Below the pieces are notes generated by a model that saw nothing but the letters and a program-made list of their open reading frames with translations, was not told the origin of the DNA and did not search any database. Both the position numbers and the translations under genes were made by a program. From Amphiscolops sp. MND2022 (lineage: Eukaryota), in contig OZ076409.1 of NCBI GenBank assembly GCA_964187785.1, positions 75,890,001 to 75,954,000 on the forward strand: a stretch of 64,000 nt of DNA, written 5' to 3'. Positions 1 through 64,000 of this stretch are shown one piece after another (the first letter of the stretch is position 1; every line of letters starts with the position of its first letter).

Positions 1-2
1 AG

Positions 3-14500: not shown

Positions 14501-16708
14501 CAAACTGTCTCAGGAATGCTGTGTGAAAATTTCAGCTCAATCGGACTTAAACTCGAGGAGATATAGCGTTTTTCCGGAGCGGGGGGGTTTCATTTTTCTA
14601 ACGGTCCAGCTTATCTTTGCCATTTTTTCGAAAATGCACTCGCCTAAAGGCCTCCCCTGGCCGGTTTTATTCCCAGCAAAACCATTTGGCCCTAAATACG
14701 GAGTTTCAGCGTTCCAGCATTCTCGGGCGAAAAGTTGTGGGACTTAAGTGTTGTGGGCCCCCAAGTTGTGGGACGTAGTGGGGGAAAAGACCCCCCAACC
14801 AGTAAATCAAGTGAATGCATGTGGAAAGGCCATGTTTAGAGGAGAAAAATGCCGTTTAGAACGTCTTTTTATCTTGGCTCAACGTTGACTTATGACGTTT
14901 TGAAGGTGATGTTTGGAGGTGTAAAGCAAGTGAATAGTAAACGTTATGAGTATTTATCTGATCTGAAAGCCATTGAGATGCAATATGATTGCTCAAAACG
15001 TAATTCATTGCAGTTTGGCAATCAATCAACACCCTTTGTTGTCGTTTGACATACTTTTTTGTTGTTAAAATAAAAAATTTTGTGTATTTATTCATTTTTT
15101 TCTCATCAAATAACTTGGAACAGTTGAGTACATTCCATCCCCCCTTCCGGGGGAGATGAGAATGTACTCGCAAAAAGCACCGAACTACGGCCCTTACCTT
15201 CCCGAGCTACGCAGTATAAGGATTACATATTGGTTCCGACATTTTCATAGAGTTATATCCTGGTAATCTGTCTGGATATGCCGAAAAATCAGCACGTGCC
15301 TTTTAATACCAAGTTGCTCACAACGACAATTATTTTATATCAACGCCCCCATATTTATCAACGCCCCCCGTCCGTGGGCATGCCGAGGCATGCCCTTCGA
15401 CGACCCGCACCAAAATATGCGTTAGCGCGGTAGCCGCTAGGTGGCCGTGTCTTTTCGACGTGCTTTTGCATTGAGGAGTGGGTAGGGCCCCGCGACGACC
15501 TAGAAGAATTGGATGCTCACCGAAACGTGCAGAATTCTACGAGATCTCATAGTTTGAGCCATACGATTTTGCTGAAATTTGGCATGTGGCCTGGAATTGG
15601 TGAGTAGGTAAAACGTGTAGGAGGTGATTTTTCCCAAATTCCACTGTGAGACGAGATATGGGCAAATAACGGTCCCAAAAATGGCAAAAATGCACTTTTT
15701 TCAACTTTGTCAGCCCATATCTCGTTCCCAGGTGCCCGGAGCGGGACGCGTTAAGCTGATTATAAACTCTAGGGTGTTGAGGCTGTACGGTGAACTTGGG
15801 CCCGTTCCGATCCGACTTGTAGTCTTGGAGAAATAACGGTATTTTTGGGGAACCTTTTCTAACGGTCCAGCTTATCTTTGCCATTTTTTCGAAAATGTAC
15901 TCGCCTAAAGGCCTCCCCCTGGCCGAATTTACTCCCAGCAAAACCATTTGGCCCTAAATACGGAGTTTCAGCGTTCCAGCATTCCCGGGCGAAAAGTTGT
16001 GGGACTTGGAAAATTTTCAAAAATTTTCAAAAAATTTTTTTTCGTTTTCCGGGCCCCCAATGAAGGGGAAACGACCCCCCAACCAGTATTTTGAGTGAAT
16101 TCATGTGGAAAGCCCTTGTTTTGACGAGAAAAATACCGTTTAGAACATCTTTTTATCTTGACTCAACGTTGACTTATGACGTTTTGAATGTGATGTAAGG
16201 ATGTAGGAGGCATGTGATAAGTTGATGTTTTGAGTCTTTATCTCATATGAAAGCGGTTGAGATGCAAGCTGTCCTGCTCAAAACGTCTTTCGTTGTAATT
16301 TTCCAGTGCACCAATACCCTTTGGTGTCATATAAACATACTTTTTGTCGATATATTAACAATTTTAATGTATTTATTCCAATTTTTATTATCTTATAACT
16401 CAAAACAGTTGAGTACATTTCATCTCCCTTTCGGGGGAGATGAGAATGTACTCGCTAAAGACCTAGCGCCATGACCAAAAGTTTGAAACCCACGTTTTTT
16501 ATCTTCTTATAGACTTGTTTTTGTATTTTTTCGGAATTTTTTAAAAATTAATATACTTGAAATACATTACTTGACTTTACTACTACAACCCACCTCCAAC
16601 GACAACGCCCCCATGCTTGCATCAACGCCCACCGTCCGTGGGCATGCCGAGGCATGCCCTTCGACGACGTATGCCAAATGCCCAGTGCCACGCAGTCATT
16701 ATCGCTAG

Positions 16709-17977
16709 GTGCCGGGATTACTATTGGATAAGGAATTTTGCGCGGTTGGGTAGGGCCCCGTGAGCGCGCCAGGGGATAGTGTTAGAACAACAAGGATTTG
16801 GGCATCAGTTGGGAGCGATTTTCTAAACTATCCGTACGATTTTGCTGAAATTTGGCACGAAGCTTCCTTGGAACATTCTAAGAACAAATCCCTACTGGCG
16901 TTTTGCTGGGAAAAATCAAAAAGTTGGTCAAAAATGCGATTTTCCGACAAAATTTTGGGGTAAAATTTTTTTGAAACGTTATATCTCGCCACAGGGTCAC
17001 GCTAGCGCCTCGCAACCTATGATCGTGTTTTGTTGGGCGTTGTCTGTAGAACACGTATGCCAAATTTGGTGGCGATCGGACTTAAACTCAGGGAGATATA
17101 GCGATTTTTTAGGTGCATTTTTTGACATTTTTTGCATTTGCCGATTTATCTCTGCCGTTTTTGCCCAAAATTTTTTTGAGACACTCTCCTAAAGACCTCC
17201 CCTGGCCGGTTTACCTCCCAGAAAAACCATTTGGCCCTAAATACGAAGTTTCAGCGTTCTAGCATTCCCGGGCAAAAAGTTGTGGGACTTAGAATAGTTT
17301 TTATGGTAACGCAAAATGTGTAAAGTCAACTTCAGGCCTCCCAAAGTCAAAGAACTTCCACACAACTAGGATTGCAAGTGGGTGCATGTGGAAAGTACTC
17401 GGATAGACGAGAAAAATGAGCTATAGAACGACTCTGTAGCTTAACCTGACGTTGACTTATGACAATTTTAGTGTGAGCTTGCTATTTGGTGTAAAAATTC
17501 AAATGATGAAAATCGAAGCTAAGTCTCATCCAAAACTCATCGGAATACGTTCAATGCATCCCAAAGCGGATTAATTCGAGATGTTTAGTGCAGCAACACC
17601 ATTCAAGACCATTTGACCCATTTTTATAAGTTTTGACAACGTATTATTCATACGAGAGCACGAAACAGTTGAGTACATTCCATCTCCCTTTCGGGGGAGA
17701 TGAGAATGTACTCGCTAAAGTCCAGGTACTACAGCCCATATTTGCTTTTATGCGACGCTCTTATGCTAGTGCGCATACTTTTTAATCGTTTAACTGAATT
17801 TTCTTCTGTCTGCACTTTGACTTTGACTTGACATATAGTGAACGTTTTGTCTTACAACTTACAAATGAGTAACGTCAACGCCCCATCCTTGCATCAACGC
17901 CCACCGTCCGTGGGCATGCCGAGGCATGCCCTTCGACGACGTATGCCAAGATATATCCCAAGCGCGGTAGCAGCTAG
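16709..17977 (+). mobile_element. Non-autonomous unit, subfamily F (starts GTGCCGGGATTACTATT)
   Basis: 1269 bp, divergent body; near-identical copy at 37104-38372. Confidence 0.75.
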
Positions 17978-20900
17978 GTGGCCGGAAATTTTTTTTTTCA
18001 GCAAAATCTTTGCCATTGGGGGAGGGGCCCCGGATGGCCAGTAGTACGGGATAGCTTCCTACCAAATCCAGGCGGAAAAAACGTGATTTTGGAAACTAGC
18101 CGTCAGAATTTGCTCAAATTTTGCATACGGCTTCCTATAACAATCCTAAGAACTAATCCCTACTGGCATTTTGCCCAAAAAACGCAAAAAGTTGGTCAAA
18201 ATCTTAGTTTTTTGGTCAAAAAATGGCGTTTTTTCGAAAAAAAAAATTTTTTAGAGACAATTACTCGTAACTGGTTCACCCAGCGCAAAAACGCCTAGCT
18301 GATTTATTGTCGGGCACTTCATGAGGAATGCGTATACAAATTTTCGTCCAAATCGGATAAAAGTTGATTGAGAAATAACTGAAAATTTGAGGCATTTTTT
18401 TGGAAATTTTTGAAATCCCAGTCTATCTCTGCCGTTTTTTGCCCAGATTTTTTTCCAGGACCTCTCCTAAAGGCCTCCCCTGGCCGGTTTACCTCACAGC
18501 AAAACCATTTGGCCCTAAATACGGAGTTTCAGCATTCCAGCATTCCCCGGGTAAAAGATAAATGACTTAGAATTTTTTCGAAAAATTTTCAAAAATTTTT
18601 TTTTTCAAATTCAGGCCTCCTAAAGTCAAGAAACTTCCACACAACTAGGATTGCAAGTGAAAGCATGTGGAAAGTGCTTGAATAGACGAGAAAAATGAGC
18701 TATCATACGACTCTGTAGCTTAACCTGACGTTGACTTATGATAGTTTTAGTGTGAGCTTCGTATGTGCTGAAAAAATCAAAGAAACCTAAAAGTCTTTTA
18801 AAAGTAATCAGAATACGTCCAATCAACCCCAGAGCTGTTAAATTGCCGTTGTGCAGTAGAGCAACACCATTTAGAGTGTTTTGACCCATTTTGACAAGTT
18901 TTGATACGGTCTTGTTCATCTGATAGCACAAAACAGTTGAGTACATTCCATCTCCCCCCTTGTGGGGGAGATGAGAATGTACTCGCTAAAAGTCAGGTAC
19001 TATAGCGCCCATTTTGTTTTGTTCGACGCTAGTGATGCTATTGCACACGAATACAATAGTTTTGTCAAATTATGTTTAACATGATGAATCTTACTTTACC
19101 TTTAGTTTACGTTTACCTACTACTACAACATCGCATCCGTAACGACAACGCCACATACTCGCATCAACGCCCACCGTCCGTGGGCATGCCGAGGCATGCC
19201 CTTCGACGACGTATGCCAAATAGCGCCACAGGGCGCAAACTTGTCCGCTAGGTGCCGGGATTTCTATTCGATAAAGTATGTGGCGCGTGTGGGTAGGGTC
19301 CCTGGCGCGCTCTTGGGTATGGTGTTCACCAGCTAGGAAATAGGGGTCGATTTTTCGGGATCTCCTAAACTAGCCACACGATTTGGCTGAAATTTGGCAC
19401 ACGTACCCCCCTCGGCACGGTGAAGATGATTTCCTACTGACGTTTTTCCCGCAAAATTTTTTTTGTTGTCCAAAATAACGGTTTTTGGGGTAAAATTTTG
19501 AATTTTTTTTAAATTTCATCTTATATCTCGCCACGGGTTTACGCTAGCGCTTCAAAACCCTGCTAAAGAAAGCTTGCAAACTGTCTCAGGAATGCGGTGT
19601 GAAATTTTCAGCTCCATCGGACTCAAACTCAGAGAGATATAGCGTTTTTCCGGAGCGGGGGGGTTTCATTTTTCTAACGGTCCAGCTTATCTTAGCCATT
19701 TTTTCGAAAATGTAATCGCCTAAAGGCCTCCCCTGGCCGGTTTTATTCCCAGCAAAACCATTTGGCCCTAAATACGGAGTTTCAGCGTTCTAGCATTCCC
19801 GGGCGAAAAGTTGTGGGACTTAGAAAATTTCAAAAATTTTCAAAAAAATTTTTTTCCGTTTTCCGCCCTCCCCCCCTAGGGGAAAAGACCCCCCAACCAG
19901 TAATTTGAGTGAATTCATGTGGAAAGGCCATGTTTAGAGGAGAAAAATTTCGTTTAAATCGTCTTTTTATCTTTATTCAACGTTGACTTATGACGTTTTG
20001 AAGGTGATGTTTGGAGGTGTGAAGCACGTGAAAAGTAAACGTTATGAGTATTTATCTGATCTGAAAGCCATTGAGATGCAACCTGTTTTGCTCAAAACGT
20101 AATTCATATCAGTTTGGTAGTCAATCAACACCCTTTGTTGTCATTTGACATCTTTTTTTGTTGATATAAGAAAAAATTTCGTGTATTTATCAATTTTTTT
20201 CTCATCAAATAACTTGAAACAGTTGAGTACATTCCATCCCCCCTTCACGGGGGAGATGAGAATGTACTCGCAAAAAGCTCCGAACTACGGCCCTTACCTT
20301 CCTGAGCTACGCAGTATAAAGATTGCATATTGGTTCCGACATTTTGATAGAGTTATATCTTGGTAATCTGTCTGGGTATGCAGAAAAACCAGCACGTGCT
20401 TTTTTATACCAAGTTGCTCACAACGACATTTATTTTATATCAACGCCCCCATATTTATCAACGCCCCCCGTCCGTGGGCATGCCGAGGCATGCCCTTCGA
20501 CGACGTATACCAAAATATGTTCGAGCGCGTTAGCCTAGGTGCCGGGATTTCTATTCGTTCGAGTATGTGGCGCGTGTGGGTAGGGCCCCTGGCGCGCTCT
20601 TGTGTTTGGGGGTTTCCTACTTCTAAATCACGTTCAGATTTCCGGGATCTCGTAAACTATCCATACGATTTGGCTGAAATTTGGCACACGTACCCCCCTC
20701 GGCACGGTGAAGATGATTTCCTACTGACGTTTTTCCCGCTAAACATTTTTTGTTGACCAAAATAACGGTTTTTGGTGGAAAATTTTTGATTTTTTTTAAA
20801 TTTTATCTTATATCTCGCCACGGGTCCACGCTAGCGCTTCCAAACCCTGCTGACGAAACCTCGCAAACTGTCTCAGGAATGCTGTGTGAAATTTTCAGCT

Positions 20901-21828
20901 CAATCGGACTTAAACTCGGGGAGATATAGCGTTTTTCCGGAGCGGGGGGGTTTCATTTTTCTAACGGTCCAGCTTATCTTTGCCATTTTTTCGAAAATGC
21001 ACTCGCCTAAAGGCCTCCCCTGGCCGGTTTTACTCCCAAAAAAACCATTTGGCCCTAAATACGGAGTTTCAGCGTTCTAGCATTCCGGGGCGAAAAGTTG
21101 TGGTACTTAGTAAATTTCAAAAATTTTCAAAAATTTTTTTTTCGTTATTTGGGCCCCCAAAGTGGGGGAAAAGACCCCCCAACCAGTAATTTGAGTGAAT
21201 TCATGTGGAAAGGCCATGTTTAGCGGCGAAAAATGCTTTTTAGATCGTCTTTTTATTTTAACCTGTTGTTGACTTATGTTGTTTTGAAGGTGATGTTTGG
21301 ATGTGTGAAGCATGTGAAAAGGTAATTTTTTGTGTCTTTATCTCTTCTAAAAGCCATTGAGATGCAATCTGTTTTGCTCAAAACGTAATTCAATGCAATT
21401 TGGCAGTCAATGAACACAATTTGGTGTCTTTTGTTATATTTTTCTGTTGATATAATAAAAAATTTTGTGTCTTTATTAATTTTTTTTAAATAAAATAACT
21501 TGAAACAGTTGAGTACATTCCATCCCCCCCTTCCGGGGGAGATGGAAATGTACTCGCTAAAAGCCGCGAACAAGAGCCCATACCTTCCTGCGCTACGCAG
21601 TATAAAGATTGCATGTTGGTTCCGACTTTTTGGTAGTGTTATATCTTGGTAATTTGACTGAATATGGAGAAAAATCAGCAAGTGCTCTTTTATAGCAAAT
21701 TGCTGACAACGACAATTTTTTTATATCAACGCCCCCATATTTATCAACGCCCCCCGTCCGTGGGCATGCCGAGGTATGCCCTTCGACGACGTATACCAAG
21801 ATATACTCCCGAGCGCGGTAGCCGCTAG

Positions 21829-24800
21829 GTGGCCGTGTCTTTTCGACGTGCTTTTGCATTGAGGAGTGGGTAGGGCCCCGCGACGACCTAGAAGAATTGG
21901 ATGCTCACCGAAACGTGCAGAATTCTACGAGATCTCATAGTTTGAGCCATACGATTTTGCTGAAATTTGGCATGTGGCCTGGAATTGGTGAGTAGGTAAA
22001 ACGTGTAGGAGGTGATTTTTCCCAAATTCCACTGTGAGACGAGATATGGGCAAATAACGGTCCCAAAAATGGCAAAAATGCACTTTTTTCAACTTTGTCA
22101 GCCCATATCTCGTTCCCAGGTGCCCGGAGCGGGACGCGTTAAGCTGATTATAAACTCTAGGGTGTTGAGGCTGTACGGGGAAGTCAGGCCCGTTCCGATC
22201 GGACTTGTAGTCTTGGAGAAATAACGGTATTTTTGGGGAACCTTTTCTAACGGTCCAGCTTATCTTTGCCATTTTTTCGAAAATGTACTCGCCTAAAGGC
22301 CTCCCCCTGGCCGAATTTACTCCCAGCAAAACCATTTGGCCCTAAATACGGAGTTTCAGCGTTCCAGCATTCCCGGGCGAAAAGTTGTGGGACTTGGAAA
22401 AATTCAAAAATTTTCAAAAAAATTTTTTTTTCGTTTTCCGGGTCCCCAATGAAGGGGAAACGACCCCCCAACCAGTATTTTGAGTGAATTCATGTGGAAA
22501 GCCCTTGTTTTGACGAGAAAAATACCGTTTAGAACATCTTTTTATCTTGACTCAACGTTGACTTATGACGTTTTGAATGTGATGTAAGGATGTAGGAGGC
22601 ATGTGATAAGTTGATGTTTTGAGTCTTTATCTCATATGAAAGCGGTTGAGATGCAAGCTGTCCTGCTCAAAACGTCTTTCGTTGTAATTTTCCAGTGCAC
22701 CAATACCCTTTGGTGTCATATAAACATACTTTTTGTCGATATATTAACAATTTTAATGTATTTATTCCAATTTTTATTATCTTATAACTCAAAACAGTTG
22801 AGTACATTTCATCTCCCTTTCGGGGGAGATGAGAATGTACTCGCTAAAGACCTAGCGCCATGACCAAAAGTTTGAAACCCACGTTTTTTATCTTCTTACA
22901 GACTTGTTTTTGTATTTTTTCGGAATTTTTTAAAAATTAATATACTTGAAATACATTACTTGACTTTACTACTACAACCCACCTCCAACGACAACGCCCC
23001 CCTGCTTGCATCAACGCCCACCGTCCGTGGGCATGCCGAGGCATGCCCTTCGACGACGTATGCCAAATGCCCAGTGCCACGCAGTCATTATCGCTAGGTG
23101 GCCGTGTCTTTTCGACGTGCTTTTGCATTGAGGAGTGGGTAGGGCCCCGCGACGACCTAGAAGAATTGGATGCTCACCGAAACGTGCAGAATTCTACGAG
23201 ATCTCATAGTTTGAGCCATACGATTTTGCTGAAATTTGGCATGTGGCCTGGAATTGGTGAGTAGGTAAAACGTGTAGAAGGTAATTTTTCCCAAATTCCA
23301 CTGTGAGAGGAGATATGGGCAAATAACGGTCCCAAAAATGGCAAAAATGCACTTTTTTCAACTTTGTCAGCCCATATCTCGTTCCCAGGTGCCCGGAGCG
23401 GGACGCGTTAAGCTGATTATAAACTCTAGGGTGTTGAGGCTGTACGGGGAAGTCAGGCCCGTTCCGATCGGACTTGTAGTCTTGGAGAAATAACGGTATT
23501 TTTGGGGAACCTTTTCTAACGGTCCAGCTTATCTTTGCCATTTTTTCGAAAATGTACTCGCCTAAAGGCCTCCCCCTGGCCGAATTTACTCCCAGCAAAA
23601 CCATTTGGCCCTAAATACGGAGTTTCAGCGTTCCAGCATTCCCGGGCGAAAAGTTGTGGGACTTGGAAAATTTTCAAAAATTTTCAAAAATTTTTTTTTC
23701 GTTTTCCGGGCCCCCAATGAAGGGGAAACGACCCCCCAACCAGTATTTTGAGTGAATTCATGTGGAAAGCCCTTGTTTTGACGAGAAAAATACCGTTTAG
23801 AACATCTTTTTATCTTGACTCAACGTTGACTTATGACGTTTTGAATGTGATGTAAGGATGTAGGAGGCATGTGATAAGTTGATGTTTTGAGTCTTTATCT
23901 CATATGAAAGCGGTTGAGATGCAAGCTGTCCTGCTCAAAACGTCTTTCGTTGTAATTTTCCAGTGCACCAATACCCTTTGGTGTCATATAAACATACTTT
24001 TTGTCGATATATTAACAATTTTAATGTATTTATTCCAATTTTTATTATCTTATAACTCAAAACAGTTGAGTACATTTCATCTCCCTTTCGGGGGAGATGA
24101 GAATGTACTCGCTAAAGACCTAGCGCCATGACCAAAAGTTTGAAACCCACGTTTTTTATCTTCTTACAGACTTGTTTTTGTATTTTTTCGGAATTTTTTA
24201 AAAATTAATATACTTGAAATACATTACTTGACTTTACTACTACAATCCACCTCCAACGTCAACGCCCCCCTGCTTGCATCAACGCCCGCCGTCCGTAGGC
24301 ATGCCGAGGCATGCCTTTCGACGACGTATGCCAAATACCCAATGCCACGCTGTCATTATCGCTAGGTGGCCGTGTCTTTTCGACGTGCTTTTGCATTGAG
24401 GAGTGGGTAGGGCCCCGCGACGACCTAGAAGAATTGGATGCTCACCGAAACGTGCAGAATTCTACGAGATCTCATAGTTTGAGCCATACGATTTTGCTGA
24501 AATTTGGCATGTGGCCTGGAATTGGTGAGTAGGTAAAACGTGTAGGAGGTGATTTTTCCCAAATTCCACTGTGAGACGAGATATGGGCAAATAACGGTCC
24601 CAAAAATGGCAAAAATGCACTTTTTTCAACTTTGTCAGCCCATATCTCGTTCCCAGGTGCCCGGAGCGGGACGCGTTAAGCTGATTATAAACTCTAGGGT
24701 GTTGAGGCTGTACGGTGAACTTGGGCCCGTTCCGATCCGACTTGTAGTCTTGGAGAAATAACGGTATTTTTGGGGAACCTTTTCTAACGGTCCAGCTTAT

Positions 24801-27800
24801 CTTTGCCATTTTTTCGAAAATGTACTCGCCTAAAGGCCTCCCCCTGGCCGAATTTACTCCCAGCAAAACCATTTGGCCCTAAATACGGAGTTTCAGCGTT
24901 CCAGCATTCCCGGGCGAAAAGTTGTGGGACTTGGAAAATTTTCAAAAATTTTCAAAAAATTTTTTTTCGTTTTCCGGGCCCCCAATGAAGGGGAAACGAC
25001 CCCCCAACCAGTATTTTGAGTGAATTCATGTGGAAAGCCCTTGTTTTGACGAGAAAAATACCGTTTAGAACATCTTTTTATCTTGACTCAACGTTGACTT
25101 ATGACGTTTTGAATGTGATGTAAGGATGTAGGAGGCATGTGATAAGTTGATGTTTTGAGTCTTTATCTCATATGAAAGCGGTTGAGATGCAAGCTGTCCT
25201 GCTCAAAACGTCTTTCGTTGTAATTTTCCAGTGCACCAATACCCTTTGGTGTCATATAAACATACTTTTTGTCGATATATTAACAATTTTAATGTATTTA
25301 TTCCAATTTTTATTATCTTATAACTCAAAACAGTTGAGTACATTTCATCTCCCTTTCGGGGGAGATGAGAATGTACTCGCTAAAGACCTAGCGCCATGAC
25401 CAAAAGTTTGAAACCCACGTTTTTTATCTTCTTATAGACTTGTTTTTGTATTTTTTCGGAATTTTTTAAAAATTAATATACTTGAAATACATTACTTGAC
25501 TTTACTACTACAACCCACCTCCAACGACAACGCCCCCCTGCTTGCATCAACGCCCACCGTCCGTGGGCATGCCGAGGCATGCCCTTCGACGACGTATGCC
25601 AAATGCCCAGTGCCACGCAGTCATTATCGCTAGGTGGCCGTGTCTTTTCGACGTGCTTTTGCATTGAGGAGTGGGTAGGGCCCCGCGACGACCTAGAAGA
25701 ATTGGATGCTCACCGAAACGTGCAGAATTCTACGAGATCTCATAGTTTGAGCCATACGATTTTTCTGAAATTTGGCATGTGGCCTGGAATTGGTGAGTAG
25801 GTAAAACGTGTAGAAGGTAATTTTTCCCAAATTCCACTGTGAGAGGAGATATGGGCAAATAACGGACCCAAAAATGGCAAAAATGCACATTTTTCAACTT
25901 TGTCAGCCAATATCTCTTTTCCAGGTGCCCGTAGCGTTCCGCACGTGGACATCAATATTGCTCAGCGCTGTTGGAGGAGTGCGTGGACAAATTTTGGTTT
26001 AAATCGGACTAAAACTTGACGAGAAATTAACGGTTTTTTGGGCGTTTCCGGGGTAAATTTTTTAACGGTCCAGCTTATCTTTGCCATTTTTTCGAAAATG
26101 TACATGCCTAAAGGCCTCCCCCTGGCCGAATTTACTCCCAGCAAACCCATTTGGCCCTAAATACGGAGTTTCAGCGTTCCAGCATTCCGGGGCGGAAAGT
26201 TGTGGGACTTGGAAAAATTTCAAAATTTTTTCAAAAATTTTTTTCCCGTTTTCCGGGCCCCCAATGAAGGGGAACGACCCCCCAACCAGTATTTTGAGTG
26301 AATTCATGTGGAAAGCCCATGTTTGGAGGAGAAAAATGCCGTTTAGCACATCTTTTTATCTTAACTTGACATTGACTTATGACGTTTTGAATGTGATGTT
26401 AGGATATATGAAGCATGTTAAAAGTTGAAGTTTTGAGTCTTTATCTCATCGGAAAACCATTGAGATACAAGCAGTTTTGCTAAAAACGATTTTCATTGTA
26501 GGTTAGCAGAGTATTAGTACACTTTGATGTCATTTGAGTATATTTTTCTTCTATATAATAACTGTTTTTATGTATTTATTCCAATTTATCTCATCTTTTA
26601 ACATCAAGCAGTTGAGTACATTTCATCTCCCTTTCGGGGGAGATGAGAATGTACTCGCTAAAAACCTAATGCTATGGCGCCAATGTTTGGATGGGAAGTT
26701 TTCTATGCTTTGAAAAAAGTTATTTTTAATTACTTGATTTTTTAAAACAATAATTAACATGAAGTACATTACTTGCTCCTACTACTACCACCATACATCT
26801 CTAACGTCAACGCCCCCTGCTTGCATCAACGCCCCATCGTCCGTGGGCATGCCGAGGCATGCCCTTCGACGACGTATGCCAAATGCCCAGTGCCACGCAG
26901 TCTTTTCCCGCTAGGTGGCCGTGTCTTTTCGACGTGCTTTTGCATTGAGGAGTGGGTAGGGCCCCGCGACGACCTAGAAGAATTGGATGCTCACCGAAAC
27001 GTGCAGAATTCTACGAGATCTCATAGTTTGAGCCATACGATTTTTCTGAAATTTGGCATGTGGCCTGGAATTGGTGAGTAGGTAAAACGTGTAGAAGGTA
27101 ATTTTTCCCAAATTCCACTGTGAGAGGAGATATGGGCAAATAACGGACCCAAAAATGGGGAAAATGCACTTTTTTCAAGTTTGTCAGCCAAAATCTCATT
27201 TCCAGGTGCCCGTAGCGTCCCGCACGTGGACGTCAATATTGCTCAACGCTGTTAGAGGAGTGCGTGGACAAATTTTGGTTGAAATCGGACGAAAACGTGA
27301 GGAGAAATTAACGGTTTTCCGGGTGTTTCCGGGTTAAAATTTTTAACGGTCCAGCTTATCTTTGCCATTTTTTCGAAAATGTACTTGCCTAAAGGCCTCC
27401 CCCTGGCCGAATTTCCTCCCAGCAAACCCATTTGGCCCTAAATACGGAGTTTCAGCGTTCCAGCATTTCCGGGCGAAAAGTTGTGGGACTTAGAAAAATT
27501 TCAAAATTTTTCAAAAATTTTTTTTTCGTTTTCCGGGCCCCCAATGAAGGGGAACGACCCCCCAACCAGTATTTTGAGTGATTGCATATCGAAAGCCCTT
27601 GTTTTGACGAGAAAAATACCGTTTCGAACATCTTTTTATTTTAACTTGGCGTTGACTTATGACGTTTTGAATGTGATGTTAGGATGTGTGAGGCATGTGA
27701 AAAGTTGATGTTTTGAGTCTTTATCTCATGTGAAAGCGATTGAGATACAAGCTGTTTCGCTCAAAACGGGTTTCATCGTAATTTCGCAGTGCATCATTGA

Positions 27801-30800
27801 CCTTTGTTGTCTTTTGAAGAATTTTTTCTTCATATAACAACAATTTTGGTGTGTTTCTTCCAATTTTTCTCATCTTCTAATTTGAAACAGTTGAGTACAT
27901 TTCATCTCCCTTTCGGGGGAGATGAGAATGTACTCGCTAAAAACCTAGTGCTTTTGCGCCGCAATGTTTGCAAAAGTTGTTATTATTGCTGTTCCATCAG
28001 CATTTTCTAACTGACTTTTTTAAAACTATCAATTAACTTGAAGTACATTACTTGAACTTACTACTAATACCATACATCTCTAACGACAACGCACCCTGCT
28101 TGCATCAACGCCCACCGTCCGTGGGCATGCCGAGGCATGCCCTTCGACGACGTATGCCAAATACCAAATGCCACGCTGTCATTATCGCTAGGTGGCCGTG
28201 TCTTTTCGACGTGCTTTTGCATTGAGGAGTGGGTAGGGCCCCGCGACGACCTAGAAGAATTGGATGCTCACCGAAACGTGCAGAATTCTACGAGATCTCA
28301 TAGTTTGAGCCATACGATTTTTCTGAAATTTGGCATGTGGCCTGGAATTGGTGAGTAGGTAAAACGTGTAGAAGGTAATTTTTCCCAAATTCCACTGTGA
28401 GACGAGATATGGGCAAATAACGGTCCCAAAAATGGCAAAAATGCACTTTTTTCAACTTTGTCAGCCCATATCTCGTTCCCAGGTGCCCGGAGCGGGACGC
28501 GTTAAGCTGATTATAAACTCTAGGGTGTTGAGGCTGTACGGGGAAGTCAGGCCCGTTCCGATCGGACTTGTAGTCTTGGAGAAATAACGGTATTTTTGGG
28601 GAACCTTTTCTAACGGTCCAGCTTATCTTTGCCATTTTTTCGAAAATGTACTCGCCTAAAGGCCTCCCCCTGGCCGAATTTACTCCCAGCAAAACCATTT
28701 GGCCCTAAATACGGAGTTTCAGCGTTCCAGCATTCCCGGGCGAAAAGTTGTGGGACTTAGAAAATTTCAAAAATTTTCAAAAAAAATTTTTTTTTGTTAT
28801 TTGGGCCCCCAAAGTGGGGGAAAGGACCCCCCAACCATTAATTTGAGTGAATGCATGTGGAAAGCCCTTGTTTTGACGAGAAAAATACCGTTTAGAACAT
28901 CTTTTTATCTTGACTCAACGTTGACTTATGACGTTTTGAATGTGATGTAAGGATGTAGGAGGCATGTGATAAGTTGATGTTTTGAGTCTTTATCTCATAT
29001 GAAAGCGGTTGAGATGCAAGCTGTCCTGCTCAAAACGTCTTTCGTTGTGATTTTCCAGTGCACCAATACCCTTTGATGTCATATAAACATACTTTTTGTC
29101 GATATATTAACAATTTTAATGTATTTATTCCAATTTTTATTATCTTATAACTCAAAACAGTTGAGTACATTTCACCTCCCTTTCGGGGGAGATGAGAATG
29201 TACTCGCTAAAGACCTAGCGCCATGACCAAAAGTTTGAAACCCACGTTTTTTTATCTTCTTACAGACTTGTTTTTGTATTTTTTCGGAATTTTTTAAAAA
29301 TTAATATACTTGAAATACATTACTTGACTTTACTACTACAACCCACCTCCAACGACAACACCCCCCTGCTTGCATCAACGCCCACCGTCCGTGGGCATGC
29401 CGAGGCATGCCCTTCGACGACGTATGCCAAATGCCCAGTGCCACGCAGTCATTATCGCTAGGTGGCCGTGTCTTTTCGACGTGCTTTTGCATTGAGGAGT
29501 GGGTAGGGCCCCGCGACGACCTAGAAGAATTGGATGCTCACCGAAACGTGCAGAATTCTACGAGATCTCATAGTTTGAGCCATACGATTTTGCTGAAATT
29601 TGGCATGTGGCCTGGAATTGGTGAGTAGGTAAAACGTGTAGGAGGTGATTTTTCCCAAATTCCACTGTGAGACGAGATATGGGCAAATAACGGTCCCAAA
29701 AATGGCAAAAATGCACTTTTTTCAACTTTGTCAGCCCATATCTCGTTCCCAGGTGCCCGGAGCGGGACGCGTTAAGCTGATTATAAACTCTAGGGTGTTG
29801 AGGCTGTACGGTGAACTTGGGCCCGTTCCGATCGGACTTGTAGTCTTGGAGAAATAACGGTATTTTTGGGGAACCTTTTCTAACGGTCCAGCTTATCTTT
29901 GCCATTTTTTCGAAAATGTACTCGCCTAAAGGCCTCCCCCTGGCCGAATTTACTCCCAGCAAAACCATTTGGCCCTAAATACGGAGTTTCAGCGTTCCAG
30001 CATTCCCGGGCGAAAAGTTGTGGGACTTGGAAAATTTTCAAAAATTTTCAAAAAATTTTTTTTCGTTTTCCGGGCCCCCAATGAAGGGGAAACGACCCCC
30101 CAACCAGTATTTTGAGTGAATTCATGTGGAAAGCCCTTGTTTTGACGAGAAAAATACCGTTTAGAACATCTTTTTATCTTGACTCAACGTTGACTTATGA
30201 CGTTTTGAATGTGATGTAAGGATGTAGGAGGCATGTGATAAGTTGATGTTTTGAGTCTTTATCTCATATGAAAGCGGTTGAGATGCAAGCTGTCCTGCTC
30301 AAAACGTCTTTCGTTGTAACTTTCCAGTGCACCAATACCCTTTGGTGTCATATAAACATACTTTTTGTCGATATATTAACAATTTTAATGTATTTATTCC
30401 AATTTTTATTATCTTATAACTCAAAACAGTTGAGTACATTTCATCTCCCTTTCGGGGGAGATGAGAATGTACTCGCTAAAGACCCAGCGCCATGACCAAA
30501 AGTTTGAAACCCGCGTTTTTTATCTTCTTACAGACTTGTTTTTGTATTTTTTCGGAATTTTTTAAAAATTCATATACTTGAAATACATTACTTGACTTTA
30601 CTACTACAATCCACCTCCAACGTCAACGCCCCCCTGCTTGCATCAACGCCCACCGTCCGTGGGCATGCCGAGGCATGCCCTTCGACGACGTATGCCAAAT
30701 GCCCAGTGCCACGCAGTCATTATCGCTAGGTGGCCGTGTCTTTTCGACGTGCTTTTGCATCGAGGAGTGGGTAGGGCCCCGCGACGACCTAGAAGAATTG

Positions 30801-33800
30801 GATGCTCACCGAAACGTGCAGAATTCTACGAGATCTCATAGTTTGAGCCATACGATTTTTCTGAAATTTGGCATGTGGCCTGGAATTGGTGAGTAGGTAA
30901 AACGTGTAGGAGGTGATTTTTCCCAAATTCCACTGTGAGACGAGATATGGGCAAATAACGGTCCCAAAAATGGCAAAAATGCACTTTTTTCAAGTTTGTC
31001 AGCCCATATCTCATTTCCAGGTGCCCGGAGCGGGACGCGTTAAGCTGATTATAAACTCTAGGGTGTTGAGGCTGTACGGGGAAGTCAGGCCCGTTCCGAT
31101 CGGACTTGTAGTCTTGGAGAAATAACGGTATTTTTGGGGAACCTTTTCTAACGGTCCAGCTTATCTTTGCCATTTTTTCGAAAATGTACTCGCCTAAAGG
31201 CCTCCCCCTGGCCGAATTTACTCCCAGCAAAACCATTTGGCCCTAAATACGGAGTTTCAGCGTTCCAGCATTCCCGGGCGAAAAGTTGTGAGACTTGGAA
31301 AATTTTCAAAAATTTTCAAAATTTTTTTTTTCGTTTTCCGAGTCCCCAATGAAGGGGAAACGACCCCCCAACCAGTATTTTGAGCGAATTCATGTGGAAA
31401 GCCCTTGTTTTGACGAGAAAAATACCGTTTAGAACATCTTTTTATCTTGACTCAACGTTGACTTATGACGTTTTGAATGTGATGTAAGGATGTAGGAGGC
31501 ATGTGATAAGTTGATGTTTTGAGTCTTTATCTCATATGAAAGCGGTTGAGATGCAAGCTGTCCTGCTCAAAACGTCTTTCGTTGTAATTTTCCAGTGCAC
31601 CAATACCCTTTGGTGTCATATAAACATACTTTTTGTCGATATATTAACAATTTTAATGTATTTATTCCAATTTTTATTATCTTATAACTCAAAACAGTTG
31701 AGTACATTTCATCTCCCTTTCGGGGGAGATGAGAATGTACTCGCTAAAGACCTAGCGCCATGACCAAAAGTTTGAAACCCACGTTTTTTATCTTCTTACA
31801 GACTTGTTTTTGTATTTTTTCGGAATTTTATAAAAATTAATATACTTGAAATACATTACTTGACTTTACTACTACAACCCACCTCCAACGACAACGCCCC
31901 CCTGCTTGCATCAACGCCCACCGTCCGTGGGCATGCCGAGGCATGCCTTTCGACGACGTATGCCAAATGCCCAGTGCCACGCAGTCATTATCGCTAGGTG
32001 GCCGTGTCTTTTCGACGTGCTTTTGCATTGAGGAGTGGGTAGGGCCCCGCGACGACCTAGAAGAATTGGATGCTCACCGAAACGTGCAGAATTCTACGAG
32101 ATCTCATAGTTTGAGCCATACGATTTTTCTGAAATTTGGCATGTGGCCTGGAATTGGTGAGTAGGTAAAACGTGTAGAAGGTAATTTTTCCCAAATTCCA
32201 CTGTGAGAGGAGATATGGGCAAATAACGGACCCAAAAATGGCAAAAATGCACATTTTTCAAGTTTGTCAGCCAATATCTCATTTCCAGGTGCCCGTAGCG
32301 TTCCGCACGTGGACGTCAATATTGCTCAGCGCTGTTAGAAGAGTGCGTGGACAAATTTTGGTTCAAATCGGACTAAAACTTGGCGAGAAATTAACGGTTT
32401 TTTGGGCGTTTCCGGGGTAAATTTTTTAACGGTCCAGCTTATCTTTGCCATTTTTTCGAAAATGTACATGCCTAAAGGCCTCCCCCTGGCCGAATTTACT
32501 CCCAGCAAACCCATTTGGCCCTAAATACGGAGTTTCAGCGTTCCAGCATTCCGGGGCGGAAAGTTGTGGGACTTGGAAAAATTTCAAAATTTTTTCAAAA
32601 ATTTTTTTTCCCGTTTTCCGGGCCCCCAATGAAGGGGAACGACCCCCCAACCAGTATTTTGAGTGAATTCATGTGGAACGCCCATGTTTGGAGGAGAAAA
32701 ATGCCGTTTAGCACATCTTTTTATCTTAACTTGACATTGACTTATGACGTTTTGAATGTGATGTTAGGATATATGAAGCATGTTAAAAGTTGAAGTTTTG
32801 AGTCTTTATCTCATCGGAAAACCATTGAGATACAAGCAGTTTTGCTAAAAACGATTTTCATTGTAGGTTAGCAGAGTATTAGTACACTTTGATGTCATTT
32901 GAGTATTTTTTTCTTCTATATAATAACTGTTTTTATGTATTTATTCCAATTTATCTCATCTTTTAACATCAAGCAGTTGAGTACATTTCATCTCCCTTTC
33001 GGGGGAGATGAGAATGTACTCGCTAAAAACCTAATGCTATGGCGCCAATGTTTGGATGGGAAGTTTTCTATGCTTTGAAAAAAGTTATTTTTAATTACTT
33101 GATTTTGTAAAACAATAATTAACATGAAGTACATTACTTGCTCCTACTACTACCACCATACATCTCTAACGTCAACGCCCCCTGCTTGCATCAACGCCCC
33201 ATCGTCCGTGGGCATGCCGAGGCATGCCCTTCGACGACGTATGCCAAATGCCCAGTGCCACGCAGTCTTTCCCCGCTAGGTGGCCGTGTCTTTTCGACGT
33301 GCTTTTGCATTGAGGAGTGGGTAGGGCCCCGCGACGACCTAGAAGAATTGGATGCTCACCGAAACGTGCAGAATTCTACGAGATCTCATAGTTTGAGCCA
33401 TACGATTTTTCTGAAATTTGGCATGTGGCCTGGAATTGGTGAGTAGGTAAAACGTGTAGGAGGTGATTTTTCCCAAATTCCACTGTGAGACGAGATATGG
33501 GCAAATAACGGTCCCAAAAATGGCAAAAATGCACTTTTTTCAACTTTGTCAGCCCATATCTCGTTCCCAGGTGCCCGGAGCGGGACGCGTTAAGCTGATT
33601 ATAAACTCTAGGGTGTTGAGGCTGTACGGGGAAGTCAGGCCCGTTCCGATCGGACTTGTAGTCTTGGAGAAATAACGGTATTTTTGGGGAACCTTTTCTA
33701 ACGGTCCAGCTTATCTTTGCCATTTTTTCGAAAATGTACTCGCCTAAAGGCCTCCCCCTGGCCGAATTTACTCCCAGCAAAACCATTTGGCCCTAAATAC

Positions 33801-35815
33801 GGAGTTTCAGCGTTCCAGCATTCCCGGGCGAAAAGTTGTGGGACTTGGAAAATTTTCAAAAATTTTCAAAATTTTTTTTTCGTTTTCCGGGCCCCCAATG
33901 AAGGGGAAACGACCCCCCAACCAGTATTTTGAGTGAATTCATGTGGAAAGCCCTTGTTTTGACGAGAAAAATACCGTTTAGAACATCTTTTTATCTTGAC
34001 TCAACGTTGACTTATGACGTTTTGAATGTGATGTAAGGATGTAGGAGGCATGTGATAAGTTGATGTTTTGAGTCTTTATCTCATATGAAAGCGGTTGAGA
34101 TGCAAGCTGTCCTGCTCAAAACGTCTTTCGTTGTAATTTTCCAGTGCACCAATACCCTTTGGTGTCATATAAACATACTTTTTGTCGATATATTAACAAT
34201 TTTAATGTATTTATTCCAATTTTTATTATCTTATAACTCAAAACAGTTGAGTACATTTCATCTCCCTTTGGGGGGAGATGAGAATGTACTCGCTAAAGAC
34301 CTAGCGCCATGACCAAAAGTTTGAAACCCACGTTTTTTATCTTCTTACAGACTTGTTTTTGTATTTTTTCGGAATTTTTTAAAAATTAATATACTTGAAA
34401 TACATTACTTGACTTTACTACTACAACCCACCTCCAACGACAACGCCCCCCTGCTTGCATCAACGCCCACCGTCCGTGGGCATGCCGAGGCATGCCCTTC
34501 GACGACGTATGCCAAATGCCCAGTGCCACGCAGTCATTATCGCTAGGTGGCCGTGTCTTTTCGACGTGCTTTTGCATCGAGGAGTGGGTAGGGCCCCGCG
34601 ACGACCTAGAAGAATTGGATGCTCACCGAAACGTGCAGAATTCTACGAGATCTCATAGTTTGAGCCATACGATTTTGCTGAAATTTGGCATGTGGCCTGG
34701 AATTGGTGAGTAGGTAAAACGTGTAGAAGGTAATTTTTCCCAAATTTCACTGTGAGACGAGATATGGGCAAATAACGGTCCCAAAAATGGCAAAAATGCA
34801 CTTTTTTCAAGTTTGTCAGCCCATATCTCGTTCCCAGGTGCCCGGAGCGGGACGCGTTAAGCTGATTATAAACTCTAGGGTGTTGAGGCTGTACGGGGAA
34901 GTCAGGCCCGTTCCGATCGGACTTGTAGTCTTGGAGAAATAACGGTATTTTTGGGGAACCTTTTCTAACGGTCCAGCTTATCTTTGCCATTTTTTCGAAA
35001 ATGTACTCGCCTAAAGGCCTTCCCCTGGCCGAATTTACTCCCAGCAAAACCATTTGGCCCTAAATACGGAGTTTCAGCGTTCCAGCATTCCCGGGCGAAA
35101 AGCTGTGGGACTTGGAAAATTTTCAAAAATTTTCAAAAAATTTTTTTTTCGTTTTCCGGGCCCCCAATGAAGGGGAAACGACCCCCCAACCAGTATTTTG
35201 AGTGAATTCATGTGGAAAGCCCTTGTTTTGACGAGAAAAATACCGTTTAGAACATCTTTTTATCTTGAGTCAACGTTGACTTATGACGTTTTGAATGTGA
35301 TGTAAGGATGTAGGAGGCATGTGATAAGTTGATGTTTTGAGTCTTTATCTCATATGAAAGCGGTTGAGATGCAAGCTGTCCTGCTCAAAACGTCTTTCGT
35401 TGTAATTTTCCAGTGCACCAATACCCTTTGGTGTCATATAAACATACTTTTCGTCGATATATTAACAATTTTAATGTATTTATTCCCATTTTTATTATCT
35501 TATAACTCAAAACAGTTGAGTACATTTCATCTCCCTTTCGGGGGAGATGAGAATGTACTCGCTAAAGACCTAGCGCCATGACCAAAAGTTTGAAACCCAC
35601 GTTTTTTATCTTCTTACAGACTTGTTTTTGTATTTTTTCGGAATTTTTTAAAAATTAATATACTTGAAATACATTACTTGACTTTACTACTACAATCCAC
35701 CTCCAACGTCAACGCCCCCCTGCTTGCATCAACGCCCACCGTCCGTGGGCATGCCGAGGCATGCCCTTCGACGACGTATGCCAAATGCCCAGTGCCACGC
35801 AGTCATTATCGCTAG
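21829..35815 (+). repeat. Uninterrupted run of 11 subfamily-A units (including A2 and A3 variants)
   Basis: All start GTGGCCGTGTC; A2 variants at 25634-26914 and 31998-33279; A3 at 26915-28191. Confidence 0.9.
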
Positions 35816-37103
35816 GTGCCCGGATTTCTATTCATTAAAGTATGTTGCGCGTGTGGGTAGGGCCCCGTGGCGCGCTCTTGTGTCCCTGTTCTAAAATCTA
35901 TAATTTCCGGCAGCATTCTGAGCGATTTTCTAAACTATCCATACGATTCGGCTGAAATTTGGCACACGTACCCCCCTCGGCACGGTGAAGATGATTTCCT
36001 ACTGACGTTTTTCCCGCAAAATTTTTTTTGTTGTCCAAAATAACGGTTTTTGGGGTAAAATTTTGAACTTTTTTTAAATTTCATCTTATATCTCGCCACG
36101 GGTTTACGCTAGCGCTTCAAAACCCTGCTAAAGAAAGCTTGCAAACTGTCTCAGGAATGCGGTGTGAAATTTTCAGCTCAATCGGACTCAAACTCAGGGA
36201 GATATAGCGTTTTTCCGGAGCGGGGGGGTTTCATCTTTCTAACGGTCCAGCTTATCTTTGCCATTTTTTCGGAAATGCACTCGCCTAAAGGCCTCCCCTG
36301 GCCGGTTTTATTCCCAGGAAAACCATTTGGCCCTAAATACGGAGTTTCAGCGTTCCAGCATTCCCGGGCGAAAAGTTGTGGGACTTAGAAAAGTTCAAAA
36401 GTTTTCAAAAAAATTTTTTTCCGTTTTCCGCCCTCCCCCCCTAGGGGAAAAGACCCCCCAACCAGTAATTTGAGTGAATTCATGTGGAAAGGCCATGTTT
36501 AGAGGAGAAAAATACCGTTTAGATCGTCTTTTTATCTTTATTCGACGTTGACTTATGACGTTTTGAAGGTGATATTTGGAGGTGTGAAGCACGTGAAAAG
36601 TAAACGTTATGAGTATTTATCTGATCTGAAAGCCATTGAGATGCAACCTGTTTTGCTCAAAACGTAATTCATATCAGTTTGGTAGTCAATCAACACCCTT
36701 TGTTGTCATTTGACATCTTTTTTTGTTGATATAAGAAAAAATTTTGTGTATTTATTCATTTTTTTCTCATCAAATAACTTGAAACAGTTGAGTACATTCC
36801 ATCCCCCTTCACGGGGGAGATGAGAATGTACTCGCAAAAAGCCCCGAACTACGGCCCTTACCTTCCTGAGCTACGCAGTATAAAGATTGCATATTGGTTC
36901 CGACATTTTGATAGAGTTATATCTTGGTAATCTGTCTGGGTATGCAGAAAAACCAGCACGTGCTTTTTTATACCAAGTTGCTCACAACGACATTTATTTT
37001 ATATCAACGCCCCCATATTTATCAACGCCCCCCGTCCGTGGGCATGCCGAGGCATGCCCTTCGACGACGTATACCAAGATATACCCCAAGCGCGTTAGCC
37101 TAG
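35816..37103 (+). mobile_element. Non-autonomous unit, subfamily G (starts GTGCCCGGATTTCTATTCATTAAAG)
   Basis: Second copy at 49298-50586; B-like body. Confidence 0.75.
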
Positions 37104-38372
37104 GTGCCGGGATTACTATTCGATAAGGAATTTTGCGCGGTTGGGTAGGGCCCCGTGAGCGCGCCAGGGGATAGTGTTAGAACAACAAGGATTTGGGCAT
37201 CAGTTGGGAGCGATTTTCTAAACTATCCGTACGATTTTGCTGAAATTTGGCACGAAGCTTCCTTGGAACATTCTAAGAACAAATCCCTACTGGCGTTTTG
37301 CTGGGAAAAATCAAAAAGTTGGTCAAAAATGCGATTTTCCGACAAAATTTTGGGGTAAAATTTTTTTGAAACGTTATATCTCGCCACAGGGTCACGCTAG
37401 CGCCTCGCAACCTATGATCGTGTTTTGTTGGGCGTTGTCTGTAGAACACGTATGCCAAATTTGGTGGCGATCGGACTTAAACTCAGGGAGATATAGCGAT
37501 TTTTTAGGTGCATTTTTTGACATTTTTTGCATTTGCCGATTTATCTCTGCCGTTTTTGCCCAAAATTTTTTTGAGACACTCTCCTAAAGACCTCCCCTGG
37601 CCGGTTTACCTCCCAGAAAAACCATTTGGCCCTAAATACGAAGTTTCAGCGTTCTAGCATTCCCGGGCAAAAAGTTGTGGGACTTAGAATAGTTTTTATG
37701 GTAACGCAAAATGTGTAAAGTCAACTTCAGGCCTCCCAAAGTCAAAGAACTTCCACACAACTAGGATTGCAAGTGGGTGCATGTGGAAAGTACTCGGATA
37801 GACGAGAAAAATGAGCTATAGAACGACTCTGTAGCTTAACCTGACGTTGACTTATGACAATTTTAGTGTGAGCTTGCTATTTGGTGTAAAAATTCAAATG
37901 ATGAAAATCGAAGCTAAGTCTCATCCAAAACTCATCGGAATACGTTCAATGCACCCCAAAGCGGATTAATTCGAGATGTTTAGTGCAGCAACACCATTCA
38001 AGACCATTTGACCCATTTTTATAAGTTTTGACAACGTATTATTCATACGAGAGCACGAAACAGTTGAGTACATTCCATCTCCCTTTCGGGGGAGATGAGA
38101 ATGTACTCGCTAAAGTCCAGGTACTACAGCCCATATTTGCTTTTATGCGACGCTCTTATGCTAGTGCGCATACTTTTTAATCGTTTAACTGAATTTTCTT
38201 CTGTCTGCACTTTGACTTTGACTTGACATATAGTGAACGTTTTGTCTTACAACTTACAAATGAGTAACGTCAACGCCCCATCCTTGCATCAACGCCCACC
38301 GTCCGTGGGCATGCCGAGGCATGCCCTTCGACGACGTATGCCAAGATATATCCCAAGCGCGGTAGCAGCTAG
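37104..38372 (+). mobile_element. Non-autonomous unit, subfamily F, copy 2
   Basis: Same length as 16709-17977 and identical ORF-track translations. Confidence 0.75.
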
Positions 38373-40946
38373 GTGCCGGGATTTCTATTCGATAAAGTAT
38401 GTGGCGCGTGTGGGTAGGGTCCCTGGCGCGCTCTTGGGTATGGTGTTCACCAGCTAGGAAATAGGGGTCGATTTTTCGGGATCTCCTAAACTAGCCACAC
38501 GATTTGGCTGAAATTTGGCACACGTACTCCCCTCGGCACGGTGAAGATGATTTCCTACTGACGTTTTTCCCGCAAAATTTTTTTTGTTGTCCAAAATAAC
38601 GGTTTTTGGGGTAAAATTTTGAATTTTTTTTAAATTTCATCTTATATCTCGCCACGATTTTACGCTAGCGCTTCAAAACCCTGCTAAAGAAAGTTTGCAA
38701 ACTGTCTCAGGAATGCGGTGTGAAATTTTCAGCTCAATCGGACTTAAACTCGGGGAGATATAGCGTTTTTCCGGAGCGGGGGGGTTTCATTTTTCTAACG
38801 GTCCAGCTTATCTTAGCCATTTTTTCGAAAATGTACTCGCCTAAAGACCTCCCCTGGCCGGTTTTATTCCCAGCAAAACCATTTGGCCCTAAATACGGAG
38901 TTTCAGCGTTCCAGCATTCCCGGGCGAAAAGTTGTGGGACTTAGAAAATTTCAAAAATTTTCAAAATTTTTTTTTCCGTTTTCCGCCCTCCCCCCCTAGG
39001 GGAAAAGACCCCCCAACCAGTAATTTGAGTGAATTCATGTGGAAAGGCCATGTTTAGAGGAGAAAAATCCCGTTTAAATCGTCTTTTTATCTTTATTCAA
39101 CGTTGACTTATGACGTTTTGAAGGTGATGTTTGGAGGTGTGAAGCACATGAAAAGTAAAGGTTATGAGTATTTATCTGATCTTAAAGCCATTGAGATGCA
39201 ACCTGTTTTGCTCAAAACGTAATTCATATCAGTTTGGTAGTCAATCAACATCCTTTGTTGTCATTTGACATCTTTTTTTGTTGATATAAGAAAAAATTTC
39301 GTGTATTTATTCATTTTTTTCTCATCAAATAACTTGAAACAGTTGAGTACATTCCATCCCCCCTTCACGGGGGAGATGAGAATGTACTCGCAAAAAGCCC
39401 CGAACTACGGCCCTTACCTTCCTGAGCTACGCAGTATAAAGTTTGCATATTGGTTCCGACATTTTGGTAGAGTTATATCTTGGTAATCTGTCTGGGTATG
39501 CAGAAAAACCAGCACGTGCTTTTTTATACCAAGTTGCTCACAACGACATTTATTTTATATCAACGCCCCCATATTTATCAACGCCCCCCGTCCGTGGGCA
39601 TGCCGAGGCATGCCCTTCGACGACGTATACCAAGATATGTTCGAGCGCGTTAGCCTAGGTGCCGGGATTTCCATTCGATAAGGAATTCTGCGCGTGTGGG
39701 TAGGGCCCCTGGCGCGCTCCTGTGTTTTCGGTTTTCCTACTCCTAAATAGACCCCCTAAATTCCGGGATCTCCTAAACTATCCATACGATTTGGCTGAAA
39801 TTTGGCACACGTACCCCCCTCGGCACGGTGAAGATGATTTCCTACTGACGTTTTTCCCGCTAAACATTTTTTGTTGACCAAAATAACGGTTTTTGGGGTA
39901 AAATTTTCAACTTTTTTTAAATTTCATCTTATATCTCGCCACGGGTGCTCGCTAGCGCTTCCAAACCTTGCTGACGAAAGTTTGCAAACTGTCTCAGGAA
40001 GGCTGTGTGAAAATTTCAGCTCAATCGGACTCAAACTCGAGGAGATATAGCGTTTTTCCGGAGCGGGGGGGTTTCATTTTTCTAACGGTCCAGCTTATCT
40101 TTGCCATTTTTTCGAAAATGCACTCGCCTAAAGGCCTCCCCTGGCCGGTTTTATTCCCAGCAAAACCATTTGGCCCTAAATACGGAGTTTCAGCGTTCCA
40201 GCATTCTCGGGCGAAAAGTTGTGGGACTTAGAAAATTTCAAAAATTTTCAAAAAATTTTTTTTTCGTTATTTGGGCCCCCAAAGTGGGGGAAAAGATCCC
40301 CCAACCAGTAATTCAAGTGAATGCATGTGGAAAGGCCATGTTTAGAGGAGAAAAATGCCGTTTAGAACGTCTTTTTATCTTGGCTCAACGTTGACTTATG
40401 ACGTTTTGAAGGTGATGTTTGGAGGTGTAAAGCAAGTGAATAGTAAACGTTATGAGTATTTATCTGATCTGAAAGCCATTGAGATGCAATATGATTGCTC
40501 AAAACGTAATTCATTGCAGTTTGGCAATCAATCAACACCCTTTGTTGTCGTTTGACATACTTTTTTGTTGTTAAAATAAAAAATTTTGTGTATTTATTCA
40601 TTTTTTCTCATCAAATAACTTGGAACAGTTGAGTACATTCCATCCCCCCCTTCCGGGGGAGATGAGAATGTACTCGCAAAAAGCACCGAACTACGGCCCT
40701 TACCTTCCCGAGCTACGCAGTATAAGGATTACATATTGGTTCCGACATTTTCATAGAGTTATATCTTGGTAATCTGTCTGGATATGCCGAAAAATCAGCA
40801 CGTGCCTTTTAATACCAAGTTGCTCACAACGACAATTATTTTATATCAACGCCCCCATATTTATCAACGCCCCCCGTCCGTGGGCATGCCGAGGCATGCC
40901 CTTCGACGACGTATACCAAGATATACATAAGCGCGGTAGCCGCTAG

Positions 40947-63900: not shown

Positions 63901-64000
63901 TTCCAGCATTCCCGGGCGAAAAGTTGTGGGACTTGGAAAATTTTCAAAAATTTTCAAAATTTTTTTTTTCGTTTTCCGGGCCCCCAATGAAGGGGAAACG

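Follow-up and report, generated by a model that had tools for sequence, protein, structure and literature searches.

Tandem repeats raise the question of which entity is being copied, the single repeat or some higher order block of repeats, and by what agent. The question is posed sharply by a stretch of 64,000 nucleotides from Amphiscolops sp. MND2022 (assembly GCA_964187785.1, contig OZ076409.1, positions 75,890,001 to 75,954,000 of the forward strand; hereafter the window), most of which is a head-to-tail array of 46 complete units and one cut unit (3897..64000, + strand). Directly before the first unit stands the 3' part of a Helitron-like element (1-3896, + strand) that encodes a RepHel protein, an HUH Y2 Rep fused to a Pif1-like helicase. 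A sequence-only reading had picked out two near-identical units, termed F, lying 20 kb apart between different neighbours, and had taken them as the clearest internal evidence that single units move as precise cassettes rather than by block duplication. The observation is real, and the pattern is more general than that reading had it.

All 46 units lie on the + strand, and the minus strand of the window holds no units bounded by CTAGGTG. Each of the 47 junctions in the array reads CTAGGTG (written CTAG/GTG where the boundary between units matters), with zero spare bases between units. Unit length is mostly 1267–1292 bp, the exception being u30 (40947..42917, + strand), which at 1971 bp has the same ends around a different body and sits at a precise junction. 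Grouping at 80% identity yields six types: 22 A-family units, 19 B-family units, the two F units and three singletons. Identity between the six falls to 47–73%, yet exact ends are common to all. The 3' part is also of uniform plan, comprising in every unit a conserved hairpin block, a variable tail and CTAG; the block includes 41 bp that are invariant and lies some 45–80 bases upstream of the junction.

The 3' subterminal hairpin of F (17905..17941, + strand) is common to all units and to the autonomous element. Over 11 aligned rows 99.4% of cells are paired and one pair is changed on both sides (G-C/A-T); this single covarying pair lends weak support to a conserved structure. A second, internal hairpin (17671..17709 in F, + strand; folding z -6.5) is present by a strict pattern in 43 of the 46 units and recurs in an independent metagenome contig, L001, considered below; u30 does not have it. 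Terminal inverted repeats of at least 8 bases between head and tail were absent from the five units tested, and the CTAG/GTG junction has no inverted arms. A tRNA scan found none, and four Rfam matches in 14100–20600 all fell far below gathering scores, revealing no RNA family. A 136-codon open reading frame (ORF) recurs in A-family units (for example 15537–15947, minus strand) and is probably incidental. We treat the units as non-coding because this ORF has no Pfam match and because tblastn of RepHel and of the second ORF of the element (ORF2) against the array gave no match.

The two F copies (u11, 16709..17977, and u27, 37104..38372, both + strand, starting GTG and ending CTAG) were said to match end to end with a couple of differences, and an ungapped comparison bears this out: 2 of 1269 bases differ (16726 G against 37121 C, and 17559 T against 37954 C). 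Since no unit outside F comes nearer than 73% identity, a chance match is excluded. Identity was also said to stop at the junctions. Aligned with their flanks, the copies share without a break the 4 bases CTAG on the upstream side and the 3 bases GTG on the downstream side; the unbroken identity goes no further. Copy 1 joins an A-type tail at 16705..16711 and a D-type head at 17974..17980; copy 2 joins a B-family tail at 37100..37106 and a B-family head at 38369..38375 (all + strand). In global alignment the upstream neighbours (u10 and u26) differ at 417 positions and the downstream neighbours (u12 and u28) at 514. These flanks are distant homologues that have the invariant hairpin block in common, not unrelated DNA. 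Taken alone, the pair fixes the unit ends to about 15–25 bases only, because F-specific letters begin inside the ends, at head base 12, and stop 17–20 bases before the tail end.

The F pair is not the clearest case of its kind. Units u38 (51877..53164) and u40 (54438..55725) are identical, and u10 (15441..16708), an A-type unit, differs from u17 (24366–25633) by a single base, each between different neighbours (all + strand). The five closest pairs in the array show 0, 1, 2, 3 and 6 differences, and in each the neighbours differ at 188 positions or more on both sides. Two of these pairs form trios of the type X-Y-X: u38 and u40 around u39 (51877–55725), and u32 and u34, with 3 differences, around u33 (44187–48005). 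Two of the four closest pairs stand two units apart, compared with 4% of all pairs; there is no near-identical adjacent pair.

If units were duplicated in blocks, then copies should have like neighbours. Among 15 reciprocal-best unit pairs none has both neighbours alike. Duplicated dimers were counted against a permutation model (u30 was excluded from this and the other alignment-based scans, leaving 45 of 46 units and 43 dimers): at up to 12 differences 0–1 were seen and 0.1–1.4 expected, and at 16 differences 9 were seen and 8.9 expected. The comparison of relatedness with array position is equally plain. At least 16 differences separate the members of each of the 45 adjacent pairs. Between adjacent A units there are 16–33 differences, the median for random A pairs being 16, and standing side by side does not make two A units more alike than a random A pair (Mantel rho -0.03, p 0.56). 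The nearest relative is next door for only one of the 46 units. No age gradient was found along the array (rho -0.25, p 0.10). With dimers no commoner than expected and closest relatives lying elsewhere than next door, the order is explained by neither block duplication nor a recent duplication in tandem. The data exclude block duplication as its source and argue against ordinary crossover or simple rolling-circle concatemers.

The place at which sequences are exchanged was sought in two ways. Reassortment of left and right types was counted as cycles over 922 boundaries under three settings: the median over all boundaries is 0, whereas there are 6–8 cycles at the junction, at most 2 beyond 50 columns from it, and none across the invariant hairpin block. 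In addition, each junction-centred sequence was assembled from the other sequences and the switches between donors counted (painting). Of 63 switches, 25 cover the junction, all within intervals that share CTAGGTG; with a lower switch cost the count is 25 of 86. A single one of the 63 intervals covers the hairpin block. The median perfect match between unlike units is 10 bases at the junction and 41 in the block, and a zone holding 22 of the 63 switches has about 2% of the long-match opportunity. A rank-correlation scan showed a dip at the junction (0.38–0.41) with similar dips elsewhere, and is not decisive. The proposal of precise single-unit cassettes thus holds across the array insofar as it concerns single-unit behaviour and precise ends. 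The units do not, however, simply move: both copies are present, which means copying, and either may derive from a third copy outside the window. Nor are they fixed, for many are internally mosaic, with 38 of the 63 switches between donors falling clear of the junction. Mosaics are plain in the alignment (u43, C and B types), and homologous exchange or template switching, to judge from the aligned sequences, is also at work.

The neighbouring element offers an agent, one that the sequence-only reading had not recognized. Its RepHel ORF enters the window at 3..1412 (+ strand; the window opens inside the ORF) with the tail of the Pif1-like helicase, followed by a GIY-YIG-like domain; the 469 amino acids are identical to the ends of the 2327-residue proteins P0034 and P0041. 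Full-length P0034, P0035 and P0041 are the same at 2323 of 2327 positions, and this near-identity suggests recent RepHel activity. P0034 has HUH and YxxKY motifs (two tyrosines), and P0010 matches Helitron_like_N (E 4.5e-8) and PIF1 (E 1.3e-7). Searched against PDB sequences at E 0.01, P0010 matched 14 of helicase type; Helitron transposases were not among them. An NCBIfam search gave nothing useful. The element terminates (3785..3896, + strand) as the units do, in the hairpin block and CTAG, with 87% identity over 85 bases to the tail of u1, which follows without a gap. RepHel is probably what drives growth of the array.

Putting these observations together, we think it likely that the units are non-autonomous Helitron-like derivatives and that the array grows mainly by copy-and-paste of single units into unit junctions; that the vehicle is a monomer circle, released by RepHel from junction to junction and inserted at another, we hold to be likely in the same measure. 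RepHel, acting in trans, would nick one junction and displace a strand as far as the next; the displaced strand would be closed as a monomer circle whose joint re-creates CTAG/GTG; and RepHel would then join the circle into another junction that resembles its own joined ends. Two junctions would exist after each insertion, making the array both donor and target. We read each CTAG/GTG as a re-created joined end because of established HUH chemistry and because Helraiser produces circles in which the two ends are joined and which may act as donors (PMC5876387). Runs of one family and the internal mosaics lead us to speculate that homology between incoming strand and resident unit might help to choose the site and might sometimes exchange sequence. 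The single orientation, the 3' hairpin and CTAG in common with the RepHel element and the exactness of the junctions speak for growth by single-unit insertion, as does u30, which has an unrelated body but the same ends and is inserted at a junction like any other unit.

A number of observations weigh on the other side. The autonomous element begins before the first base of the window, and is linked to the units by its 3' end only. Described Helitrons start with TC and have an A/T target; the unit heads start with GTG, and there is no A/T at the array junctions. The same junctions would result from precise excision out of larger arrays. The 38 interior donor switches are spread through the units, and painted switches are partly reciprocal and not independent, although the junction contrast is large. 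Same-family adjacencies number 36 where 22 are expected, an A tail leads into an A head in 17 of 22 cases, compared with 6 of 25, and both D-type heads follow tails with the same last 17 bases (regions 9015–9045 and 17960–17990); purely random insertion would not predict this. This tail end is found in few units, and may reflect a junction preference or a shared history.

The excess of same-family neighbours would also suit the main rival account, in which the same enzyme first laid down rolling-circle concatemers, whose units then changed places through junction-specific excision and exchange from origin to origin. Tandem Helitron arrays have been ascribed to such concatemers (PMC5876387, PMC11934779), a split dimer could account for each of the trios u38-u39-u40 and u32-u33-u34, and the junctions would be equally precise; yet concatemers give identical neighbours, and the absence of adjacent pairs with fewer than 16 differences, together with the Mantel result, leads us to regard this account as unlikely. 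Mosaic units and clustered families likewise show that homologous exchange acts, as it would in an ordinary satellite evolving by unequal crossover and gene conversion, where the F match would mark a converted stretch or be left over from a duplicated block. Exchange, however, is nearly absent from the longest invariant block (1 of 63 switches, 0 cycles) and favours the shortest shared sequence, there are no duplicated blocks, and six groups at 47–73% identity have exact common ends. For unit order this explanation is already largely refuted, and overall it seems to us decidedly improbable.

The cassette-like pattern, and a junction core (AGGTG) that is kept in L001, would also suit some other site-specific enzyme, for example an integron-like tyrosine recombinase, that shuffles units and carries RepHel as a passenger with the same ends. 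No such enzyme was identified among the 41 listed ORFs, of which three proteins were scanned; the hairpin and CTAG downstream of RepHel are a Helitron right end and the junction is without inverted arms. There is little to recommend this possibility. Identical 1.3-kb units can confuse assemblers, and reads of different arrays or haplotypes might have been mis-joined in this assembly. A mis-join through an identical unit swaps flanks, but cannot invent four distinct F junctions or favour a 7-bp spot, and L001, from another collection, has a related mixed junction; we give artefact almost no credence.

Growth by insertion of single units at junctions would set this system apart from those described, and its place among them needs definition. 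By its sequence features the element is a member of the Helitron-like superfamily, in keeping with the absence of target-site duplication at all 47 array junctions. It resembles the first class of Helitron-like elements (HLE1, Helitron1) in its HUH Y2 Rep with Pif1 helicase, its 3' hairpin and CTAG (a CTRR end), a gene of single-stranded DNA (ssDNA)-binding type downstream of RepHel, and head-to-tail junctions. It differs in that the hairpin lies about 35–50 bases from the end (about 11 in HLE1), RepHel carries a C-terminal GIY-YIG fusion, and mixed families stand in shuffled order rather than as a concatemer. The 5' TC of HLE1 is absent: all 47 junctions continue with GTG and no register of CTAGGTG contains TC, nor do the array junctions show insertion between A and T. 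Rep motif 2, published for HLE1 as (V/I)ExQxRG(S/L)(P/L)HxH with 4 residues between Q and PH (PMC4067079), is here EFQSTKGNLPHIH; 74 of 147 relatives matched the motif search pattern, and all 74 have 6–9 residues in that interval.

With the second class (HLE2: Helitron2, Helentron, HINE/DINE-1 and FoHeli; PMC3627910, PMC4067079, PMC5148889) it shares a Helentron-like Arg just before Rep motif 2 and non-autonomous partners with conserved internal blocks; self-insertions are reported for FoHeli in the same sources, and a GIY-YIG domain for one Sphagnum family, HelenSM92 (HELIANO, PMC11417382). It has Leu rather than Ser before PH, and neither the asymmetric terminal inverted repeats of HLE2 (in the five units tested) nor its T/T target and terminal T runs were found. 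DUF6570, an HLE2 marker (PMC11417382), and AP endonuclease were found in none of 6 RepHel proteins, 19 long relatives or 45 precomputed lists. The Proto-Helentron of Phytophthora (PMC4067079, PMC11417382) likewise has a 3' CTAG on a non-HLE1 transposase; its 5' TT, A/T target, DUF6570 and inverted repeats were not seen here. Replitrons, with a Y1 Rep without helicase and short direct terminal repeats (PMC10288648), do not fit an element with a fused helicase and two tyrosines. Site specificity is on record for IS91 (PMC5876387), and IS91/ISCR elements offer an analogy in the orientation- and site-specific addition of units via circles without target duplication. The present system has a eukaryotic RepHel with fused helicase, no integrase and units without genes, and its target would be the joined ends of the element itself. 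Integron cassette arrays serve as the same kind of analogy.

RepHel has many relatives. Its N-terminal half matched 1148 clusters at 50% identity, 226 of them at 1e-30, and in the Atlas the clusters closest to it are of Helitron_like_N type, DUF6570 being present in some. GIY-YIG occurs in 14 of 19 long relatives (one of 20 was excluded from the Pfam scan because of its size). The Perkinsus olseni hypothetical proteins P0276 and P0289 belong to the same family (42–43% identity in the Rep region). Several RepHel subfamilies have equally long longest contigs, a weak hint that autonomous copies may cluster. The clade may overlap known sequences, given the unclassified clusters and the GIY-YIG in a Sphagnum family reported by HELIANO (PMC11417382). 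Tandem Helitron arrays are known from plants, bats, Xenopus, cnidarians and nematodes. In the literature searched, which took in few subscription journals and not Repbase, we found no account of this RepHel clade or of mixed, junction-shuffled arrays.

In contig L001 a related unit meets, tail to head, a second and different one at CGAG/GTG, with both hairpins and the central block preserved; the head of u30 resembles that of the second unit. The arrangement is thus not unique to the window, and the invariant core of the junction may be AGGTG. The hairpin pattern was found in neither genome_contigs nor viral_contigs, and the central conserved block not in viral_contigs. Alignment searches with RepHel confirmed none of 62 candidates in viral_contigs and one of 142 in genome_contigs: L002, a 2.5-kb contig without ends. 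It holds a RepHel relative (1–2512, 34% identity) in a bacterial MAG record and is probably host or other eukaryotic DNA.

Exchange unit by unit at a 7-bp junction points to integration, the least understood step of Helitron transposition, and, for in vitro work, the array supplies a donor and a target that are both defined. It is conceivable, if rather doubtful, that a large and unnamed third HLE branch (RepHel-GIY-YIG, distinct Rep motif 2, GTG...CTAG) integrates site-specifically into its own joined ends, building self-growing, integron-like arrays in eukaryotic genomes from autonomous and non-autonomous members of different families, one at a time. Self-targeting, if true, would provide the transposon with a safe harbour and offer a path by which transposons become satellites. 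The RepHel family is broad, including the unnamed Perkinsus proteins, and would be missed by scanners for TC...CTRR or for terminal inverted repeats.

Some features of the array and of the element remain to be described. Unit u30 carries an internal 180-bp duplication, its copies about 500 bp apart. The GIY-YIG-like domain of RepHel (1056–1235, + strand) lacks residues kept in sister families: in an alignment from which 2 of 22 proteins were dropped, the Tyr, Arg, His and Glu that distant relatives retain are missing from all 7 rows of its apparently active subfamily. We take these to be catalytic, as in I-TevI; the domain is probably a dead nuclease rather than a targeting nuclease. ORF2 (1973..2950, + strand) resembles OB-fold ssDNA-binding proteins by language-model features; the fold match is weak (a model of pLDDT 43 gave a best E of 0.002, and at E 0.001 Foldseek found nothing), and its product is a probable OB-fold ssDNA-binding protein as far as these models go. 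A possible phase-1 GT-AG intron (2895–3184) may interrupt ORF2, followed by a last exon running to 3363, in which a 12-bp repeat would encode a tail rich in Ala, Pro and Thr.

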